The notes: generated by a model not told the origin, from the letters alone. Positions 2,198-63,500 are shown, numbered from the stretch's first letter. The stretch: 64,000 nucleotides of DNA from Bacteroidota bacterium (GCA_016720935.1 JADKJP010000005.1:173216-237215); one strand, 5' to 3'. Program-made: numbers and translations.

Positions 2198-3100
2198 ATG
2201 AGTAGACCCTCTCTTTTTTCACCGCTGATCCTTATTTATTTAGCTCTTTTCGCCTGTTCCGGTAAAAAATCCGAATCCTGTCTTCCCTATGATCTCTCCA
2301 AACCTGCTGATGTGATCAAATTGCCCGGTCGTTTGAAGGAAATCAGTGGAATTACATTTTGGAACACAACCAAACTTGCCTGTGTACAGGATGAAAAAGG
2401 TGTGATTTATTTTTACGATGTGAGGAAGGATAAATTGAAAAATGATTTGTCTTTCGGTGAAGACAAAGATTACGAAGGAATCAGTAATGTAAATGACACG
2501 ATTTATGTATTGTGTAGCAATGGAGATATCTTCGAAGTGGATCAGGCAGGAGAGGAAGGGCAAACAACCATCACACACAAAACCTTTCTCAACAAGCGCA
2601 ACAATTGTGAAGGACTGTGTTACGATGCGGCGAACCGGCGATTACTTATCGCATGCAAAGGAAGGCCGGCCAAAGGAACAGCGGCTCGTTATCTTAAAGC
2701 CATTTATTCTTTTCCACTTGCAACAAAAACGCTGGATTCAGTTCCGGTTTATGAAATCGATCCGGATTCTGTAAAAAACTGGTTGCAAATAGATGAGAAG
2801 AAACATTCGGGCTGGACAGATTGGTTTACGTCTTCCGTGGATAAAGAAAAAGAATTTCTGTTTGAACCATCAGAACTTGCCATCAATCCGATCAGTGGAG
2901 ATATCTACCTTTTGTCTTCTGCCGGAAAAAAAATGGTTGTACTGAACACGGCAGGTGATATAAAATGTGTTGAGAAACTCGATCCACATCAATTCAAACA
3001 ACCGGAAGGTATTGCCTTTACTCCTGACGGAGATCTCTATATTTCTGATGAAGGGAAAGAAGGAAAAGCGAATATTCTTCATTTTCATCAATTGCATTGA
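2198..3100 (+). CDS. Lipoprotein, YjiK/SdiA-regulated-like beta-propeller domain protein
   Basis: Lipobox 'LFACSG', repeated strand motifs, and an 'NCEGLCYD' motif reminiscent of the SdiA-regulated family. Family assignment is a weak recollection. Confidence 0.4.
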   Translation: MSRPSLFSPLILIYLALFACSGKKSESCLPYDLSKPADVIKLPGRLKEISGITFWNTTKLACVQDEKGVIYFYDVRKDKLKNDLSFGEDKDYEGISNVNDTIYVLCSNGDIFEVDQAGEEGQTTITHKTFLNKRNNCEGLCYDAANRRLLIACKGRPAKGTAARYLKAIYSFPLATKTLDSVPVYEIDPDSVKNWLQIDEKKHSGWTDWFTSSVDKEKEFLFEPSELAINPISGDIYLLSSAGKKMVVLNTAGDIKCVEKLDPHQFKQPEGIAFTPDGDLYISDEGKEGKANILHFHQLH

Positions 3101-3195
3101 ATTTCATTTCAATTATTTCTCGCTTTATCTAATTGCAATCCTGATGTACCGTTAGCTCTCGCTATGATTTACTTTCTTTGTAAAAAACTAATATC

Positions 3196-3813
3196 ATGAA
3201 GAACATTCAGGCGATCATCTTTGATCTTGGCGGAGTTATTCTGGATATTGATTATCACAGAACCGCGAATGCATTCATTAACCTCGGGGTGGACAATTTT
3301 TCTGAACTTTTCTCCCAACTGAAACAAGACCGCTTATTTGACGATTTCGAAAAAGGGTTTATCGACCCACAGAGTTTTCGCGACAGATTACGTTCCTATG
3401 CAAGACAACACATGAGTGACAAGCAAATCGATCATGCCTGGAACGCGATTCTCATTGGTTTGCCAAAAGAAAATGTAGACTATTTAACGCGTTTGAAAGA
3501 AAATTACAGACTTTTTCTATTGAGCAATACGAATGAGATTCACGAGAAAGCATTTCGAGAGATGATTGAAAACCGTTATGGTGAATATATTTTTGACCGG
3601 ATCTTTGAAAAGGCCTACTTATCACACCGCATCCATCAACGAAAACCCGACCGTTCCATCTATGAATATGTGATCCGGGAAAATGATCTTGATGCATCAA
3701 CGACTTTATTCATCGATGATTCTCCGCAAAACGTGGAGGGAGCAAAACTCGCGGGTTTAAATTCCCTTTGGCTGGAGAAAGAAAAAAAATTGACGGACCT
3801 GCAATTACTCTGA
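3196..3813 (+). CDS. HAD superfamily hydrolase, subfamily IA
   Basis: N-terminal 'IIFDLGGVIL' (DxG motif I), a downstream 'LLSNTN' motif II and 'FIDDSPQNVEGA' motif IV. Confidence 0.8.
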   Translation: MKNIQAIIFDLGGVILDIDYHRTANAFINLGVDNFSELFSQLKQDRLFDDFEKGFIDPQSFRDRLRSYARQHMSDKQIDHAWNAILIGLPKENVDYLTRLKENYRLFLLSNTNEIHEKAFREMIENRYGEYIFDRIFEKAYLSHRIHQRKPDRSIYEYVIRENDLDASTTLFIDDSPQNVEGAKLAGLNSLWLEKEKKLTDLQLL

Positions 3814-6399: not shown

Positions 6400-7130
6400 A
6401 AATACAGGTAGGTTCTCTTCATTCCTGCCGACTAATCCGATTCAATTCAGAATTGATTCGACATTCAGGTAGGATCGGATGATTTGTTCATCCGGAATTG
6501 ATCCGCATGATGATTCCTATACATATATATGTATAGAACATTCCATTCAGTTTGCACAAAACTTCAAAAAACGTCGATTTCAATTCAGAATGAAAACAAT
6601 TTGGATTATTTCATGATTGCATCAACGATTTGAAAGAGTTCGGTGGAATTGAAGACACATTATTGAATGAACCAAGATCAAATGAAGGATTGATTTCGAA
6701 TGAACGATGAAGTGAGAGGGAAAAATGAATTCATATATGTTGATCAAACAAACAATGTTCATGTGATGAGTTCAAAATCTTAAATCCGATCCAAGTTCGG
6801 ACGAATTTTTTTCCATAATCTGATTTTTCCGCGCTTTTTTTTTGACAATCCGGACGAATCTGATCAAAATTTGTTCTGTTGAGGTACTTTCAAAATGTTT
6901 ATAACTTTGAAAACGTGTTTTGCTTTTCTTCACGTTTTAAAATGCGAAAAGTGAAATCAAAAAGTTGATGATGCTCTGAACACCGCATGAATAAAGGCAT
7001 TCAGAAGATCATGAAAATTATTTTTGAGTGCAAAAGATGTACAATACATGCAAAAAATGTGTACTCCGTAATCAACATTTCATTGTTTAAAAAAATATTC
7101 GTCAAATTGGTGTAACCTTTTTTTATTTCA

Positions 7131-32612: not shown

Positions 32613-34973
32613 TTATTCTTTGACTAATCGAGTCTTTTGAATTTCCAAACCGTTCTCCAAAGTTACGAAATAGACTCCTTTGATAAAGGAATCCAGGCTA
32701 ATTGGAAGACGATTTACTCCTTCGTGGAGATCAACCTTCTTTGACAATACAACCTGCCCCTGTGAATTAAAAATCTGCACTACGGCTGTGCCTTCAGTTT
32801 CAGTACTGAATACAACATCCATATTGTCCTTCGCAGGATTGGGTTGAACAATGAAGATATTTGATTTGGATTCAAAGCGAACCGGAACAATTTCAGAATA
32901 ACTGAATTTTCCGTCATAATCTGTTTGTTTCAATCGGTAATAGGACAACCCTTTTGAAGGTTCACCATCAATCGTTGAATAAACTTTTGTTTGGGTACTA
33001 TTACCGGCTCCATCTACCATTCCGATGGCCTGGAAATCGATTCCATTTTTGCTGCGCTCAATAGTGAAATAGTCATTGTTTGTTTCTGTCGCGGTTGTCC
33101 AGCTGAGTTTCACCATGCTGTTATCCGGTTTCGCGCTGAAGCTCAACAATTCTATTGGCAATGGTGTTACAGAACAATCGAGTGAAGCGCCATTGGTGAG
33201 GAGCCAGTTCAAGGAGAAACCGCTACCACCGGGACTCCATTTACTTACTACGAGTTGATAGGTTTCCCCTGTAGTCACTCCCAGTTCATTTGTCCAGCCA
33301 TTACCACAGGCATCTTCGCTATTATCGGATCCGCTGTTGTTCACTCCGCAGGCATTTGTATTTGTACTCAAATTAGACGCAGAGTTCATCCCGGTATTTG
33401 GAAAGGCTGCCCAATTGCCGGCATAGGAACAACGAATCGGGGATCCAAGTGAACCACAAGTTGGGTTTGGTCCAAAGAGCGCGAAGTCATAATCATCAGC
33501 AGTGGTATTCGGTGCGATTGTGAATCCTAATTTACCTCCGGATTGAATTTTGATGGTATACCAGTTGGTATAATTTTCTGTTGGTACACATGCACCGGAG
33601 AGGTCTGATGACAAACCAGGACCGGTACTTGCATCCGTAATTGCCTGGTTACTACAAATACCTGTTGAATTGGCGCAGTCACTATTGTCTGTACCATTCG
33701 GTCCTGCTGCATATGGAACACAATCGAAAGTTGCGACCCATCCTGCACGATTCGTGCTTGAATTGGAATTAAAACGAACTGTGATACATCCGCTTTGATC
33801 AGTAGAAATATACGGACCGAGACCAACAGACATACAAGCCTGGTAAGTGTTCACCGGTCCGCCAAACCATGCCGACCCCCCGTTAAATTGAGGGCTATTT
33901 TGAGTTGCACCGTTTAGAATTTCCAGATAATCATTCGGAATGCCAAAGGTGGTAGTGTTATCAGTATAAAAAGACCAGAACTGCATGCGCAATGCTGTGC
34001 CGGGTTGATCCGGACAGAAGGTACGATAGATTCCATTTACATTGTTCGAATAGTTTCCGCCGGTTCCGCCATCATCGGTAAATGTACCGGAACAAGTATT
34101 AACCATATTGGAACCAACATACGTTCCCAACATTCCCGTTGTTGGCGCAGTATAGGTTGCCACACCTGCCGGTGCTGTCGGACATGGAACACAGGAAATA
34201 ATCGCGCTCCAACCTGCTCGCGTAGTACTGGCATCTGATTTAAAACGAAAGGTAAGACAACCGGTGGTAGAAATAATTGTCGGAGGCAATGTTGTTCCAC
34301 TGTACACTCCGATTCGTGTAGCAGCTGTAGATGCTCCATCAAAAATTGTCAGCGAATCTCTGCCTGCTTGAGTATTGAATGACGTAAATACAAACATGAG
34401 ACAGTTTCCTGAGTTTGAACAGAACGTTTCTACTAAAGTCTGGTTATTTGCATAAGTTCCACCGGAACCTCCCGAATCAAAAAAGAGGCCGGAACAAGTA
34501 TTCACCGTGAGACCATTGGTCATGTTGTAATTCCCACTGCAGGAAACACAGGAAAGTGTTACAGCCCATCCGCTGCGTGTATTACTTCCATTGGAAACAA
34601 ATTTGAATGTGAGACAACCACTGGAAGAAGTCAGAGCCGGCGGCAGCGTACTTCCTGAAAAAGTTCCCAATACTGGATAAGTATTATTAGGTCCGTCGTA
34701 AACGGTAAGGATATCATTTCCGCCTTGTGTTCTGAAGGCTGTGAAAGTCGCTACTATGCATGTAGATGCATTGGAACAAAAGCTTATGGTGTAATTCTCG
34801 TTGTTCGCATAATTACCTCCGGAACCTCCGGAATCATAAAACGTACCTCCGCAGGTGCTCACAGTAGTATTGTTGGATGCCGCGTTTAGAAGATAGGTCT
34901 GAGCATTTGTTGTTCCGGTGAACACCAATAACAATACAGAACAGATCAATAAATTGTAAAATAACTTTTTCAT
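32613..34973 (-). CDS. T9SS-sorted secreted protein with about 4 tandem CUB-like domains and a type-A CTD
   Basis: Signal peptide. Repeated roughly 110-aa units 'TCSGxFxDsGGsGGxYaNN...fCSN...CL...F.sF.Tq.G.D.LtiyDG.......G.ysGt..PP...SssGCLTF.F.SD.S..r.GW.A.isC' with CUB-like spacing. C-terminal '...KGVYFVTLENGLEIQKTRLVKE'. Confidence 0.6.
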   Translation of the reverse strand: MKKLFYNLLICSVLLLVFTGTTNAQTYLLNAASNNTTVSTCGGTFYDSGGSGGNYANNENYTISFCSNASTCIVATFTAFRTQGGNDILTVYDGPNNTYPVLGTFSGSTLPPALTSSSGCLTFKFVSNGSNTRSGWAVTLSCVSCSGNYNMTNGLTVNTCSGLFFDSGGSGGTYANNQTLVETFCSNSGNCLMFVFTSFNTQAGRDSLTIFDGASTAATRIGVYSGTTLPPTIISTTGCLTFRFKSDASTTRAGWSAIISCVPCPTAPAGVATYTAPTTGMLGTYVGSNMVNTCSGTFTDDGGTGGNYSNNVNGIYRTFCPDQPGTALRMQFWSFYTDNTTTFGIPNDYLEILNGATQNSPQFNGGSAWFGGPVNTYQACMSVGLGPYISTDQSGCITVRFNSNSSTNRAGWVATFDCVPYAAGPNGTDNSDCANSTGICSNQAITDASTGPGLSSDLSGACVPTENYTNWYTIKIQSGGKLGFTIAPNTTADDYDFALFGPNPTCGSLGSPIRCSYAGNWAAFPNTGMNSASNLSTNTNACGVNNSGSDNSEDACGNGWTNELGVTTGETYQLVVSKWSPGGSGFSLNWLLTNGASLDCSVTPLPIELLSFSAKPDNSMVKLSWTTATETNNDYFTIERSKNGIDFQAIGMVDGAGNSTQTKVYSTIDGEPSKGLSYYRLKQTDYDGKFSYSEIVPVRFESKSNIFIVQPNPAKDNMDVVFSTETEGTAVVQIFNSQGQVVLSKKVDLHEGVNRLPISLDSFIKGVYFVTLENGLEIQKTRLVKE

Positions 34974-35355
34974 TGGCCTTCAATCTTTAGAATAAACACA
35001 GATCTCTTTTGGGGCATGAAGAGAGTTCTTTGCTTATTCTTTTTTAGTTAAAAGGCTTGAATTAGTTGAGATGAAATGAAGCAAAATCCTACATCAGTGA
35101 CTAGGATTCTATCTTGTCAATTTCTTGAAAAACATCTCATTTTTCACAAACAGATGGTACAAAGATGGAAATGAATGGACAAAAACGATGGATTCTCTTC
35201 ATTTTTGTGTTTCTGTTTTTATACCGCTCATCCTTCATTTTTCGAAATTGGTTAAGCGGCATAACCAATTCTAATGCAGGTTATTCGTCTATTATTTTCG
35301 GAAACCTGAATAAGATTGGTATACAAGTCTTTTAACTGGTAGAGTTTACACATTT

Positions 35356-35514
35356 AAAATCCCGAAGGGATGAAATTATTATAGAACATACAGTTTCGCG
35401 TCATTCCAAAAGCCCGAAGGGCTGACATGTTCACCGAAGTCATGTCAGCCCTTCGGGCTTTTGGATTCAAGGAGTTTGCTTTTTTCTATAATAATTTCAT
35501 CCCTTCGGGATTTT
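35356..35514. mobile_element. MITE-like structured element: perfect 29-bp terminal inverted repeats enclosing a perfect 24-bp-stem hairpin
   Basis: Terminal inverted repeats 'AAAATCCCGAAGGGATGAAATTATTATAG' at 35356-35384 and its exact reverse complement at 35486-35514. Internal hairpin 'CCAAAAGCCCGAAGGGCTGACATG' at 35406-35429 and its exact complement at 35441-35464, with an 11-nt loop. Confidence 0.6.
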
Positions 35515-35884
35515 CGAAAAATGGAAATCCGGATGATTCAGTCCTTTTTGCCTTATTAGTAAAAAGGCCTTTCAACATGAGGACTCCTATGTGAACGGGA
35601 GGTTTTTTTGAATTTTGAATCGATCATTTTTTTTCACCAATCAACAACAAAATCAATGCACGTTTTGAATAAGAAAAAATATTTAGTAGCGAAAAAATTA
35701 GCAATCTAACCCCGGGCGTAGCGAGGTTACGAGCGAAGCACGGGAAAGGCGGAATTGAAGTGTAAAAAAATATCGTTCCAAAAAACCTTATCATTCTTTG
35801 CTTCAACAGCGCTAAATATTTTTCTCAAACTGCGTGATGTTTTAAATCTCTCCATGCATCACACATCCAAGAGTACCATCAATC

Positions 35885-38218
35885 TCAGTGATGCACCAAC
35901 CTAGAAACACGATGGCTCTGATTGTCATCCAATATAACTATGTATACTCCCTTTGGTAAACCGGAAATATCAATCTGTGTTTTGTTCATTCCCGGATTGG
36001 CGATGACTGTTTCTTTGAGACAAGAAATTCCTTCAGTACTTAGAATCTGCAGATTGTAATTGGTCCGTTCACCGGAACTAAAGATCAATGACACTTCATT
36101 ACCGGCAGGGTTTGGTTGCAAATAAAAAATGTCATTCTTCTCGCTGAAGTCAACCGGGACTTTTTCGGAGTACGAGAATTTACCGTCAAAATCAGTTTGC
36201 TTCAATCGATAATATGAGATGCCCTGGAATGGTTTTTCATCCACCGTTTCGTAGTTCTTCACCACAGTAGTTGTTCCGGCACCATCTACCATTTGAACTG
36301 GTTCAAAATCTGTTCCGTCAGCGCTTCTTTCGGTGGTAAAATACTGGTTGTTGATTTCTGAAGCAGTAGTCCAGTTCAGCCTGACAATTTTTGATTCGGC
36401 ATTCGCCTGGAAAGAAATCAATTCGACAGGAAGCACACTGCAATTCAGTGATGCGCCTCCGGTGAGTGTCCAGTCGAGTGTAAACCCGCTACCTCCCGGA
36501 GACCATTTGTTCACGAGCAAATAAAAATTCTGGCCGACACTTACTGCCATTTCGTTCACCCAGCCATTTCCGCAAACATCTTCCGATACATCCGAGCCGT
36601 TGTTTGGTAGTCCGCAAATAGCGGTATTTGTTGCCAAATTGTTCGCGTTATTCATTCCGGTATTTCCGGTGTTGGAAGCATAAGAACAACGAACAGGAGC
36701 TCCGAGTGCTCCGCAGCTGTTGCTTTGATACATCGCGAAATCATAATCATCTGCACCGACATTCGGTACAATTGTCAACCCAAGATTTCCTCCTGTACTC
36801 ACAGTAATTTTATACCAGTTGCTGAAATTTTCACTGAGGACACATCCGTTTCCTCCATCGGAAATAATTCCCGGTCCTGTACTTGCATCGGAAAAACTCT
36901 GATCCGTACAAACCGGAGATCCAATCAGGCAATCACTGTTGTCTGTACCATTCGGACCATTCGCGCAGGGAACACAATCAAACGTGGTGACCCAACCCGA
37001 ACTGACCACACTAGCATCAGAGAAGAATTCAAATGTCAGACAGCCACTTTGATCCGTAGAGGTGTAAGGTCCGATTCCTGCACCCATACAGGCTGAGTAT
37101 GTTGTGAGTGGTCCGCCCCACCAGGCTCCAAGAATTGGACTTCCCTGAGTCGGGCCATTTCTGATGGCGAGGTAATCGATTCCGAGTTCAGTTCCAAAAG
37201 AATAAAATTGCGCACGCAAACATTTGCCTGCCTGATTCGGACAAAATGTTCGGTAATAACCCTGGTCACTGAACAAACTACTTGTTCCAATATTGTTGGA
37301 ATAATTTCCGGCAATACCACCATTGTCGGTATAAGTTCCGCCACAGGTGTTCACCATATTATTTCCAACATAGGTATTTTGCAAACCAACTGTCGGGTGA
37401 GTATAGGTTGCTGTACCTGCAGGCGCGCTCGGACAAATTTCACAGGTGATAATCGCCTGCCAGCCGGCATCGACAAGATTTGCATTGGATGTAAAGTTCA
37501 CAGTCAGACAACCTGAGGACGACAACATGGTGGGAGGCAAAGTTGTTCCTGAATAAGTTCCAATCAGTGGTGATGCGACACTGTTACCATTGTATACTGT
37601 GAGGTTATCACCGGTACGTAATGCAAAAGACGTAAACTGAATTTGCAAGCAAGATCCCGGTGTGGAAGAGCAAAATGTTTTTGTGAAATTCTGGTTGTTC
37701 GCGTAATTGGCTGCGCTTCCACCGCCATCGAAAAACAATCCTCCGCAGGTATTCACTGCAGTATTGTTATTCATCAGGTAGCTGGTACCACATGCACCAC
37801 AGGAAATAGTCGCGGCCCAACCGGAGCGAACGGTGCTTCCGTTTGAAACAAAATTAAATGTCAGACAACCGCTTGAAGCGGTGATCGAACCGGGAGATGT
37901 TGTTCCTGAAAAAACACCTATCACCGGCGATGCCGTAGTTGGTCCGTCGTAAATCGTGAGCAAATCATTTCCTCCCTGAGTACGGAATGCGGTGAAATTT
38001 ACCGTCAAACAGTTTCCGGCATTGGAGCAAAACGATTGTGTGATATTGGTATTGTTGGCATAATTTCCTGCTGCACCACCCGGATCATAAAATGTCCCGC
38101 TACATGTATTAATGGTACCATTCGCCATGTTGTATGTCTGAGCATACAAATGGGAATCAGCGAAGATTGCCAGTAATATAAAGATCAACACGACCTTTAG
38201 AGTATGAGGGTAACTCAT
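35885..38218 (-). CDS. T9SS-sorted secreted protein with tandem CUB-like domains (paralog of 32613-34973)
   Basis: Same architecture and repeat consensus as the neighbouring gene. C-terminal CTD '...KGVYIVILDDNQSHRVSRLVHH'. Confidence 0.6.
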   Translation of the reverse strand: MSYPHTLKVVLIFILLAIFADSHLYAQTYNMANGTINTCSGTFYDPGGAAGNYANNTNITQSFCSNAGNCLTVNFTAFRTQGGNDLLTIYDGPTTASPVIGVFSGTTSPGSITASSGCLTFNFVSNGSTVRSGWAATISCGACGTSYLMNNNTAVNTCGGLFFDGGGSAANYANNQNFTKTFCSSTPGSCLQIQFTSFALRTGDNLTVYNGNSVASPLIGTYSGTTLPPTMLSSSGCLTVNFTSNANLVDAGWQAIITCEICPSAPAGTATYTHPTVGLQNTYVGNNMVNTCGGTYTDNGGIAGNYSNNIGTSSLFSDQGYYRTFCPNQAGKCLRAQFYSFGTELGIDYLAIRNGPTQGSPILGAWWGGPLTTYSACMGAGIGPYTSTDQSGCLTFEFFSDASVVSSGWVTTFDCVPCANGPNGTDNSDCLIGSPVCTDQSFSDASTGPGIISDGGNGCVLSENFSNWYKITVSTGGNLGLTIVPNVGADDYDFAMYQSNSCGALGAPVRCSYASNTGNTGMNNANNLATNTAICGLPNNGSDVSEDVCGNGWVNEMAVSVGQNFYLLVNKWSPGGSGFTLDWTLTGGASLNCSVLPVELISFQANAESKIVRLNWTTASEINNQYFTTERSADGTDFEPVQMVDGAGTTTVVKNYETVDEKPFQGISYYRLKQTDFDGKFSYSEKVPVDFSEKNDIFYLQPNPAGNEVSLIFSSGERTNYNLQILSTEGISCLKETVIANPGMNKTQIDISGLPKGVYIVILDDNQSHRVSRLVHH

Positions 38219-59391: not shown

Positions 59392-60111
59392 ATGCTTCAC
59401 AAGACCAGAGGTATTGTCATTCACACCACCGATTACTCCGAAACGAGTATTGTGGCCAAGATCTATACCGAACTTTTCGGCCTTCAGTCGTATATCGTGA
59501 ACAGTGTTCGGAAGAAAAACGCGAAAATAAAATCCAATGTATTCCAGCCGCTCACTCTGGTTGATTTAGTGGTTTATCATAAAGAGCGCGGTGGCTTACA
59601 AAGAGTCGCGGAAGTAAAACCGATGCCCGCCTTACGGAACATCCCTTTCGATATCCGAAAGAGTTCAATGGCATTGTTTCTTGACGAAGTATTGTACAAA
59701 TCTGTTCGGGAAGAAGAATGCAATCCGTCTTTGTTTGAATTCATCTTCAATGCAGTACAGATGCTGGATCTTCAGCATCCTATCAATCCGGATTTTCACT
59801 TGTTATTTTTATTACAGTACTCCAAATACCTGGGTTTCTTTCCTTCGAATGATTACGATGAAACACATTGTGTTTTCAATTTACAAGAAGGACATTTTCA
59901 AGCGGATGTACCCTCACATCCTTTTTATATTCCGGCAGATGTAAGTGCGTATTTCCATCAGTTGCTCGAAGTATTACCGGACTTTAACTCCAGGCTGTCG
60001 ATTCCGGTGGATATCAAAAGACAATTGATTGAACACATCCTGGAATATTTTGAATTGCATCTGACAGGATTTTCAGGCATCAAATCACACAGAGTGCTGG
60101 AACAGATTTTT

Positions 60112-60112
<1 letters not shown>
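59392..60112 (+). CDS. recO: DNA repair protein RecO; the 3' end and stop are lost in the G/C homopolymer block
   Basis: N-terminal OB fold 'KTRGIVIHTTDYSETSIVAKIYTELFGLQSYIV', then a helical domain. About 240 aa of normal-looking sequence precede the anomaly; the extreme C-terminus cannot be read. Confidence 0.75.
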
Positions 60113-62408
<2,296 letters not shown>

Positions 62409-62411
62409 GCC

Positions 62412-63500
62412 TTATAATTCACTCACAATTTCTTTTGCCTCCGTTTTAGAAAATCTGGAGCGAATCCAGCGAGGTAAAATGATAGCGCCAATGAACAGGT
62501 AAGGATAGTAACTCACAAGTCTCCACAACAAACCGAGAGAGGCTGATAATCCTTTTGGTATAAATTCTCCGAGAAAATCTGAAAACATGAATTCAGCCAG
62601 ACCACTTCCGCCGGGTGTAGGGCTGAAGAGAATAATAATTCCCATCACTACCTGACGCGCGAATACAATAAAATTTTCTACCGGTACATTGTGAAAAGCA
62701 AGAATGAGACAATTCACAATGGTATATCGGGCTGTCCAGGAAGCGAACGTTCCCGCGAAAGAGTTGAACCAGAATTTACGGCTTTTGTTTTTTAAGCCTT
62801 TAGAAGCAATCACCAGCTGGTTGCCTGTTTCCAGGGCGCTGTGCTTCCATCTTCTCAGAACCGGCAATGAAAACATTTTGATGAGAAGCCATTTCACAAA
62901 ACGTGGGTTCACAAACAATGCATAAGCGACAAAGACCTTGTAAGCAAGAATAATGAAATAGACAATCCAGAACGAATAGAAGAATCCCGATCCGATTTTA
63001 TCTGTATTTAATGTTTCAAGATTTAATGTAGAAAAAAGTCTTTCTTTTCCGATAATGAAATATACCAACGGAGCCATGATAGCCAGGAACACACCATCCT
63101 GAAACGAAGAAAGCATTACAGCAGTAATGCTTTTCCCCATGTTCACTTTTTCCCTGTTGAGAATAAAAATCGCGAAGAAGAATCCTCCACCCAGCATACC
63201 GGGAGCGAGAGCGGATGAAAACTCCCACAACATGATTACATTAAAAGAATTTCTCCAGGAGATCTGATCATCGGTTAGCGCGCGAATCCGGATCATATAG
63301 GCACCATCGCGCACCACCATCATCATCAACGCCATCAAAATCCAGAAGGAAGAACTCCAGCCCCAGGAAATATGAGAAAAAGCCTCACTGTCAAAATTCT
63401 TTAGCAGCAAATAAGTAGCTGCTCCCAGACCCAAAGCGATTGGCAGGAAGATTCGTGATGGACGAAACGTCTTGAGGAGCTGCCTGCTATCGGGTTGCAT
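62412..63500 (-). CDS. Flippase-like / lysylphosphatidylglycerol-synthase-TM-domain family membrane protein (UPF0104)
   Basis: About 8 TM helices, a 'MQPDSRQLLKTF..RIFLPIALGLG' N-terminus and a 'PTPGGSGLAEF' motif. Confidence 0.5.
   Translation of the reverse strand: MQPDSRQLLKTFRPSRIFLPIALGLGAATYLLLKNFDSEAFSHISWGWSSSFWILMALMMMVVRDGAYMIRIRALTDDQISWRNSFNVIMLWEFSSALAPGMLGGGFFFAIFILNREKVNMGKSITAVMLSSFQDGVFLAIMAPLVYFIIGKERLFSTLNLETLNTDKIGSGFFYSFWIVYFIILAYKVFVAYALFVNPRFVKWLLIKMFSLPVLRRWKHSALETGNQLVIASKGLKNKSRKFWFNSFAGTFASWTARYTIVNCLILAFHNVPVENFIVFARQVVMGIIILFSPTPGGSGLAEFMFSDFLGEFIPKGLSASLGLLWRLVSYYPYLFIGAIILPRWIRSRFSKTEAKEIVSEL

Follow-up and report, generated by a model that had tools for sequence, protein, structure and literature searches.

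The nested palindrome of 159 bp at 35356-35514 of the window (the whole stretch of DNA that was analysed, 64 kb in length) is most probably a gene-less, REPIN/BIME-like cluster of four REP-like units, cognate to a family of ~153-aa IS200-like HUH-Y1 transposases. In terms of type, it is a non-autonomous element of the REP/REPIN kind. It is not a miniature inverted-repeat transposable element (MITE) with terminal inverted repeats (TIRs) and a target-site duplication (TSD), it is not an sRNA, and it is not linked to the duplication of the two paralogs that lie around it. The basis for this assignment is a conserved hairpin unit, the extragenic dispersal of that unit, its inverted layout around a Y1 gene, the recurrence of gene-less forms, and the presence or absence of the element in relatives.

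Structure of the element

An inverted-repeat search of the window confirmed that the palindrome is real. It is located between two minus-strand genes with CUB and Por_Secre_tail domains, paralogs that are 56% identical to each other, in a spacer of 911 nt that agrees with the ~900 bp first reported. Four copies of one ~30-nt unit make up the element, in the order A', B', an 11-nt loop, B and A (Table 1). The original prediction had described perfect outer inverted repeats of 29 bp, and a perfect inner hairpin of 24 bp closed by an 11-nt loop. Both were recovered at a slightly greater length, with outer arms of 31 nt and inner arms of 25 nt, all of them 100% complementary. A and B are 52 nt apart and have an identity of 83-86% in a direct-repeat search, and the spacers on the two sides are equal in length.

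Table 1. Coordinates of the element, of its parts and of the features around it, counted from the first base of the window.
Feature	Coordinates	Strand	Remarks
Outer left arm A'	35356-35386	-	One full repeat unit, TTCTATAATAATTTCATCCCTTCGGGATTTT when read on the minus strand; complementary to 35484-35514 over all 31 nt; nhmmer unit match, E 7e-8
Left spacer, 18 nt	35387-35404		Without complementarity to the right spacer; without conservation in the family
Inner left arm B'	35405-35429	-	Unit without CTATAAT box; hairpin GCCC-TTC-GGGC when read on the minus strand; complementary to 35441-35465 over all 25 nt; nhmmer match
Central loop, 11 nt	35430-35440		Site held by a Y1 transposase gene of ~460 nt in gene-bearing relatives
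Inner right arm B	35441-35465	+	CATGTCAGCCCTTCGGGCTTTTGGA; nhmmer match
Right spacer, 18 nt	35466-35483		TTCAAGGAGTTTGCTTTT; partly common to the half-element of the 87% relative
Outer right arm A	35484-35514	+	Full unit: CTATAAT box, 5-bp hairpin, TTC loop, T-run
240-nt block that includes the element	35345-35584 (approximate)		Absent from the orthologous spacer of relative L213
Downstream flanking gene	32613-34973	-	CUB + T9SS sorting domain, 786 aa; context only
Upstream flanking gene	35885-38218	-	CUB + T9SS sorting-domain paralog, 777 aa; context only

Once a G/C artefact block is set aside, the arms of the element are the two longest perfect inverted repeats of the 64-kb window, and neither of them was matched elsewhere in the window at up to 3 mismatches. 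The sequence CCCGAAGGG is found 4 times in the window, always inside the element, against 0.48 copies expected. Either strand folds at about -101 kcal/mol, which corresponds to a z of about -15 when compared with shuffles.

The claim that such inverted repeats are beyond chance is borne out by dinucleotide shuffling, with no match to either arm in 100 shuffles. Four ENA metagenome assemblies carry the element without any difference, and the NCBI MAG GCA_016721635.1 has the spacer with 2 substitutions; the element is therefore not an assembly error, a doubt that had been raised at the outset. Altogether the palindrome is present in six independent assemblies, and members of its family are found in hundreds of loci. 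The probability of a chance palindrome or of an assembly artefact is negligible, and nothing speaks for it beyond one clear artefact elsewhere in the window (60112-62411).

As for further copies, nhmmer and tblastn found neither a unit outside the element nor a Y1 gene in the window together with 10 kb past each of its ends, ~84 kb in all. Likewise, no Y1 coding remnant was found in the window (tblastn, E > 0.2).

A reading of the element as a sigma-70 promoter was dropped. The matches of the scan were at the level of consensus noise, and the TATAAT-like box is part of the repeat.

A dispersed family of hairpin units

The unit has the form tCTAyAAT-nAT-nTCA-[nCCC-TTC-GGGn]-TT(TT). We used its common core, ATNTCANCCCTTCGGGNTTTT, as a pattern to scan reference genomes, with one genome per species. 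At least 120 loci were matched, compared with ~17 expected by chance, the latter being our own estimate from 18 specified bases and 596 Gb on both strands. Nearly all listed loci are from Chitinophagaceae, Saprospiraceae, Bacteroidales, Cytophagales, Flavobacteriales, Ignavibacteria or Brocadiaceae. Among the matches listed, several MAGs of other organisms were hit on 2-3 separate contigs, and isolates are represented by Dyadobacter bucti, Dyadobacter sp. 3J3, Niabella hibiscisoli and Pedobacter changchengzhani. The flanks of the matches extend the consensus to ttCTAyAATaATnTCAnCCCTTCGGGnTTTT, which the outer arm of the window fits, and no conserved sequence was seen in them past the ends of the unit.

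In the pattern-scan loci, the N positions beside CCC and GGG are paired in 142 of 147 cases, and all four Watson-Crick types are present. The pairing was counted again with 147 units taken from loci that had been picked independently of the DNA pattern. Here the 5-bp stem (A-n-CCC / GGG-n-T, with a TTC loop) has 98.4% of its cells paired; shifting the partner column by one position lowers the value to 57-73%. The variable pair 16-26 covaries (CG 85, UA 47, GC 9, AU 2, UG 1, other 3), in counts that come from related copies and hence are not independent events. Four pair types at one position nevertheless argue for selection on the hairpin.

With an nhmmer profile of the unit, 395 units were found in the 120 listed loci. 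They are arranged as singlets (66), as direct pairs and arrays with a period of ~51-53 nt and up to 10-14 copies, or as inverted groups. The gene-less layout of the window, with two reverse units followed by two forward units ('--++'), was found by the same profile in 7 other genomes of the listed loci, where it is 142-188 nt long. Taking the eight '--++' elements together, the gaps between outer and inner units, as delimited by nhmmer, are 22-29 nt and are non-complementary, and the inner unit hits are -3 to 35 nt apart. The exact 31-mer of the outer arm of the window is also present in locus L090 and, at 6436, in locus L119, where the identical unit lies ~35 nt upstream of a Y1 ORF that starts at 6500.

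The units are extragenic, with only 24 of 386 located within ORFs of at least 120 aa, though such ORFs span 79% of the loci. With respect to the gene that ends just upstream, 72 units are sense and 82 are antisense, so there is no bias in orientation.

These counts bear on a primary role at the RNA level, in which the element would be a structured cis-regulator, an sRNA or a (bidirectional) intrinsic terminator between the CUB genes. The extremely stable fold of both strands would suit such a role, as would the GC hairpin and T-run with which each unit ends, one of them caught by a terminator scan of the window. Enterobacterial REPs, moreover, have known effects on mRNA stability and termination. 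We still regard an RNA-level role as very unlikely. The random orientation of the units is against it; the hairpin and U-run of an intrinsic terminator are there, but not its orientation with the upstream gene. No Rfam family was found at or above its gathering score in the window spacer, where the best matches are generic long-hairpin miRNA models of plants and animals that stay far below that score (e.g. 48 vs 211 bits), and six array-bearing loci had no Rfam match at E <= 0.1. A CTAyAAT box 5' of the hairpin, together with a tight linkage to a DNA transposase, is unexpected for a terminator, and close relatives do without the element. The suggestion of a regulatory element or sRNA, made in the original prediction, thus finds no support in either Rfam or the orientation of the units. 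The hairpin family has no Rfam model, and we found no prior description of it in the searchable literature, the coverage of which is limited.

Long head-to-tail arrays of 5-14 units were observed in five loci (L106 38-512, L112 1474-2117, L037 1668-2006, L051 1362-1704 and L111 1-225). Their period is mostly ~51-53 nt; in L112 the hairpins are ~28 nt apart and lie beside a Y1 gene. Since the DNA between the units repeats as well, the arrays do not resemble CRISPRs.

In MAGs of Brocadiaceae and Jettenia (L017, L041, L074 and L076; anammox Planctomycetota), ~40 nt of flank on both sides of the unit are conserved across genera, in the form ctacggggttgaata...tttctctataatc UNIT cctgtctg(t/c)ccgttttccctattgg. 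The shared flanks suggest that, outside Bacteroidota, the unit is part of a larger composite repeat or has spread horizontally.

A Y1 transposase gene between inverted units

Clustering of the ORFs of the 120 listed loci gave one family that stands out, a 153-aa protein found in 18 loci. It matches Pfam Y1_Tnp ("Transposase IS200 like") with E values of 1e-22 to 1e-24 and the NCBIfam IS200/IS605 transposase with 59 bits. A profile of the protein finds the TnpA of ISDra2 and of IS608 as the nearest solved structures, and did not find the structure of E. coli TnpA_REP at E <= 0.01. The 14 aligned members all share D54, H57, Q96, Y115, Q119, H122 and H123, while H55 and W95 are almost invariant. 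The resulting motifs are DH[IV]H, WQ and Y..I.NQ..HH (Y-x-Y-I-x-N-Q-E-x-H-H), followed by a conserved C-terminal tail. The family is very large, with at least 8000 protein clusters at E <= 1e-10. It is named "IS200/IS605 family transposase" by NCBI and carries the generic name "REP element-mobilizing transposase RayT" at JGI.

Among the matches listed, Y1_Tnp is the only recurrent neighbour gene family that resembles a transposase. Judged by eye, the ORF clusters of the 120 listed loci include no TnpB or DDE family, and the other recurrent ones look like housekeeping genes (ABC transporter, sigma-54 regulator, TonB receptor and similar).

In the 18 loci, reverse units precede the gene and forward units follow it, usually two per side, and the inner unit is without the CTAyAAT box that the outer unit has. 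An independent test was made with 80 metagenome loci picked by protein similarity only and then scanned for units. Units are present in 67 of the 80. Within 300 nt of the gene, an upstream unit was found in 53 of 74 cases, a downstream unit in 51 of 74, and units on both sides in 44. Upstream units are mostly reverse (95 '-' vs 34 '+') and downstream units mostly forward (88 '+' vs 36 '-'), typically at -50 and -5 on the upstream side of the gene and at +5 and +50 on the downstream side. The 13 loci without units mostly hold homologs whose identity is about 61% or less, and their units may have diverged.

The gene-bearing loci have a REPtron-like layout, with the Y1 gene exactly at the position of the loop in the window. 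From the order '- - gene + +' it follows that the element of the window has the anatomy of a cassette in which the gene of ~460 nt is replaced by an 11-nt loop.

Another route to the same anatomy would be a relic formed in situ, i.e. a Y1 cassette (A', B', gene, B, A) that once stood here, lost its gene by deletion and left its ends, without ever having moved as a miniature. The order and spacing of the units, exactly as in the gene-bearing cassettes, would fit this, and so would the fact that the element is the sole unit cluster in ~84 kb of the source genome. We consider it unlikely, since in gene-bearing cassettes the likeness of left to right arm is just 0.73, against 100% in the window, and that of arms taken from different loci is 0.70. 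Cassette arms are therefore no more alike than random ones, and simple gene loss does not explain the 31/31 and 25/25 symmetry of the window. The missing trace of Y1 coding sequence, the same gene-less form in seven other genomes, and a relative with a 97% identical CUB protein that has neither gene nor ends at the site also stand against a relic. The perfect arms with their unrelated spacers could instead mean that both halves are recent copies of near-consensus master units; another possibility is that pairing is maintained in the hairpin state.

The linked gene also bears on the description of the element as MITE-like. A classical MITE would be a deletion derivative of an IS with a DDE transposase, recognised through double-stranded TIRs and inserted with a TSD. 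The perfect 31-bp TIRs, the small size and the intergenic position agree with this, but we regard it as highly improbable. A check for a TSD was negative: the ends are bordered by TTTA and CGAA, which form no direct repeat, and the flanks printed for the other '--++' elements show no evident duplication either. The supposed TIR is a repeat unit, found also as a singlet, in tandem arrays and in both orientations, and the only gene recurrently linked to it among the matches listed is of the Y1 HUH type. What stands of the MITE-like description is its broad sense, a miniature non-autonomous mobile element, supported by the transposase encoded in the gene-bearing form of the dispersed family and by close relatives that are without the element; what does not stand is a classical TIR/TSD MITE.

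One Bacteroidia MAG (L046) has two diverged Y1 genes 2.2 kb apart, at 264-725 and 2924-3388. Both genes are preceded by an array of reverse units and followed by forward units, separate for each gene. Many of the Y1-bearing contigs are 1-3 kb long, which would fit metagenome assemblies that break at the flanking units.

Comparison with close relatives

The closest of the relatives compared here, L213, has a downstream CUB protein 97% identical to that of the window. Its spacer aligns on both sides of the element, with ~86% identity over a short left block and ~88% on the right, and a block of 240 nt that includes the element is absent (Table 1). This indel, which may be either an insertion or a deletion, is larger than the 159-nt element and has no clean boundaries. 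Its extra flanks showed no repeats among all fetched loci.

A terminator-like hairpin, CTCCTATGTGAACGGGAG then GTTTTTTT, lies at 35584-35601 (+), antisense to both CUB genes, and coincides with the right boundary of the 240-nt block. A second indel in the spacer, 102 nt at 35216-35317, is also absent from L213. It has inner inverted repeats, e.g. AATTGGTTAAGC / GCATAACCAATT, and was matched neither by the unit profile nor by any of the loci fetched.

A relative at 87% (L127/L128) has a spacer of 378 nt between the paralogs, without the element. It has, in another intergenic region, upstream of the first CUB paralog, a decayed B-spacer-A copy with both hairpins broken (L127 2802-2885, also L128 about 118-192). 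This copy is 84 nt long with 85% identity, is homologous to arm B, the right spacer and arm A of the window, and extends into 11 nt of flank. Because the spacer is common to the L127 copy and the window, the comparison suggests that the B-spacer-A half was copied as one piece; the right spacer, partly common to the half-element of this relative, appears to have been copied together with B and A.

The gene order of the 87% relative is unlike that of the window, as SprB-domain genes are found there in place of dxs. A GC-rich motif at ~35700-35750 resembled L127 at about 3030-3075 when compared by eye; the likeness was not recovered by BLAST, and the motif was rejected.

In relatives at 66%, both paralogs are present, 246 nt apart, and no units are found. 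Since relatives without the element have the tandem paralogs, the tandem CUB duplication is, by this comparison of sequences, older than the element and independent of it. The original prediction had proposed that the element may be related to the duplication of the paralogs; their identity of only 56% and the tandem arrangement in relatives that are without the element do not bear this out.

Known systems and a candidate mechanism

The REP/RAYT systems are best characterised in Proteobacteria, and provide the main case of a replicator, long-lived and inherited vertically, that is combined with a domesticated transposase. The family described here is similar in several respects to REP/BIME/REPIN elements with their RAYT (TnpA_REP) transposase, the REPtron of E. 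coli, Pseudomonas and Stenotrophomonas. The units are short extragenic hairpins found as singlets, inverted doublets and arrays; they flank, in inverted orientation, a Y1 HUH transposase gene of low copy number; pairs of opposite orientation fold into long hairpins; the target site is not duplicated; and compensatory changes keep the pairing. Inverted pairs of the REPIN kind are found in the window, where the inner pair is 25 bp and the outer pair 31 bp, and in seven further '--++' elements.

There are also clear differences. The units have no GT[AG]G at the 5' foot of the hairpin, where AT-n-TC is found instead, and the CTAyAAT box is placed ~6 nt before the foot. With 5 bp the stem is very short, and the TTC loop that closes it is conserved. 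An end of a cassette typically has two units, the inner without and the outer with a box, ~45-52 nt apart. The protein has the class-1 signature Y..I.NQ..HH, and not the class-2 RAYT signature Y...NP.

In the case of IS200/IS605 and their PATEs, the catalytic family (Pfam Y1_Tnp, NCBIfam IS200) and the subterminal hairpins are shared, and gene-less derivatives likewise consist of the two ends. In IS200/IS605, however, both end hairpins are on the same strand, the copies are multiple as whole ISs, and tnpB is often carried, whereas here the ends are inverted copies of one unit, the units far outnumber the genes, and no tnpB was found nearby. A PATE would be expected 3' of a fixed tetra- or pentanucleotide target, with its end hairpins on one strand. 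Here the end units are inverted and not direct, no conserved sequence was seen beyond the unit ends, and the junctions of the indel seen against L213 are not clean.

Finally, MITEs of the Correia, ERIC and RUP types are also ~100-160 bp long and intergenic, have long TIRs and may fold in transcripts. They have target duplications (TA for Correia) and no Y1 partner, while the element of the window is without a duplication and is built of REP-like sub-units.

For the TnpA of IS608 and ISDra2, a single-strand mechanism is established. By analogy with these enzymes and with TnpA_REP of E. coli and Stenotrophomonas, the Y1 enzyme would bind the small hairpins on single-stranded DNA, e.g. on the lagging-strand template. 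It would then cut at a fixed, conserved site nearby and religate. As a speculation, the candidate cut lies in the CTAyAAT box, at an apparently invariant C|T that precedes the hairpin by ~12 nt on its 5' side. Units, or B-spacer-A halves, may in this way be excised or copied in trans, as in the analogous systems, and no target-site duplication would arise. The flanks TTTA and CGAA, which show no duplication, are consistent with movement of this kind. In vitro, TnpA_REP cleaves single-stranded DNA at C|T beside a hairpin, and the choice of site is directed by a tetranucleotide on the 5' side of the stem (PMC8266576). Any effect on the two CUB genes, either as a barrier to transcription or as a stabiliser of mRNA 3' ends, would be a possible by-product only.

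Relation to subclass 1.2 of the Y1 transposases

Judged by published motif signatures, as distinct from the HMMs of their authors, the 153-aa family matches the "subclass 1.2" TnpA_Y1. It agrees with this subclass in its motifs (DH[IV]H, WQ and Y...Q..HH), in a length close to the reported ~148 aa (~150 aa), in the conserved C-tail and in its occurrence in Bacteroidetes, the subclass being known from Bacteroidetes or Cyanobacteria. Subclass 1.2 was published as having no REPs and no IS features (Quentin, Siguier, Chandler & Fichant 2018, PMC6006769), whereas in our data units flank the majority of the members that are within about 60% identity of the query. The automatic REP search of that study required a GT[AG]G foot at the hairpin (PMC6006769), and would thus miss the units described here. 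This was the one paper that our literature search found on the clade, and a later description was not found.

On balance, we lean towards the view that the subclass 1.2 Y1 proteins are the transposases of a distinct and very large class of REPtrons, spread over Bacteroidota, Ignavibacteriota, Brocadiaceae and others (the protein clusters counted above), with the element of the window as a REPIN-like miniature. Such a class would have a grammar of its own, with two-hairpin ends, CTAyAAT in place of GTAG, a TTC loop closing a stem of 5 bp, and units spaced ~51 nt apart. If this is true, REP-type domestication arose at least twice, once inside the IS200 clade.

The element of the window is one ordinary member of the family. 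An IS200-clade Y1 protein with a hairpin family of its own, in Bacteroidota and allies, would fill the "no REP" gap of subclass 1.2. The units offer a concrete DNA substrate for the biochemistry of an uncharacterised enzyme clade, and would explain common intergenic hairpins, and probably contig breaks, in MAGs of these phyla. As for the palindrome of the window, it would be selfish or structural DNA, with no evidence for a regulatory RNA or for a route to the duplication of the CUB paralogs.

An unrelated block in the window

The block of 2,300 nt at 60112-62411 has ~91% G+C and long runs of poly-G and poly-C. In three independent assemblies of the locus (L218-L220) the bases on its two sides are direct neighbours, within a gene annotated there as recO. 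The block has the look of an artefact or of inserted junk, not of a biological feature. In the window it creates a spurious ORF of 1036 aa, at 59392-62502.
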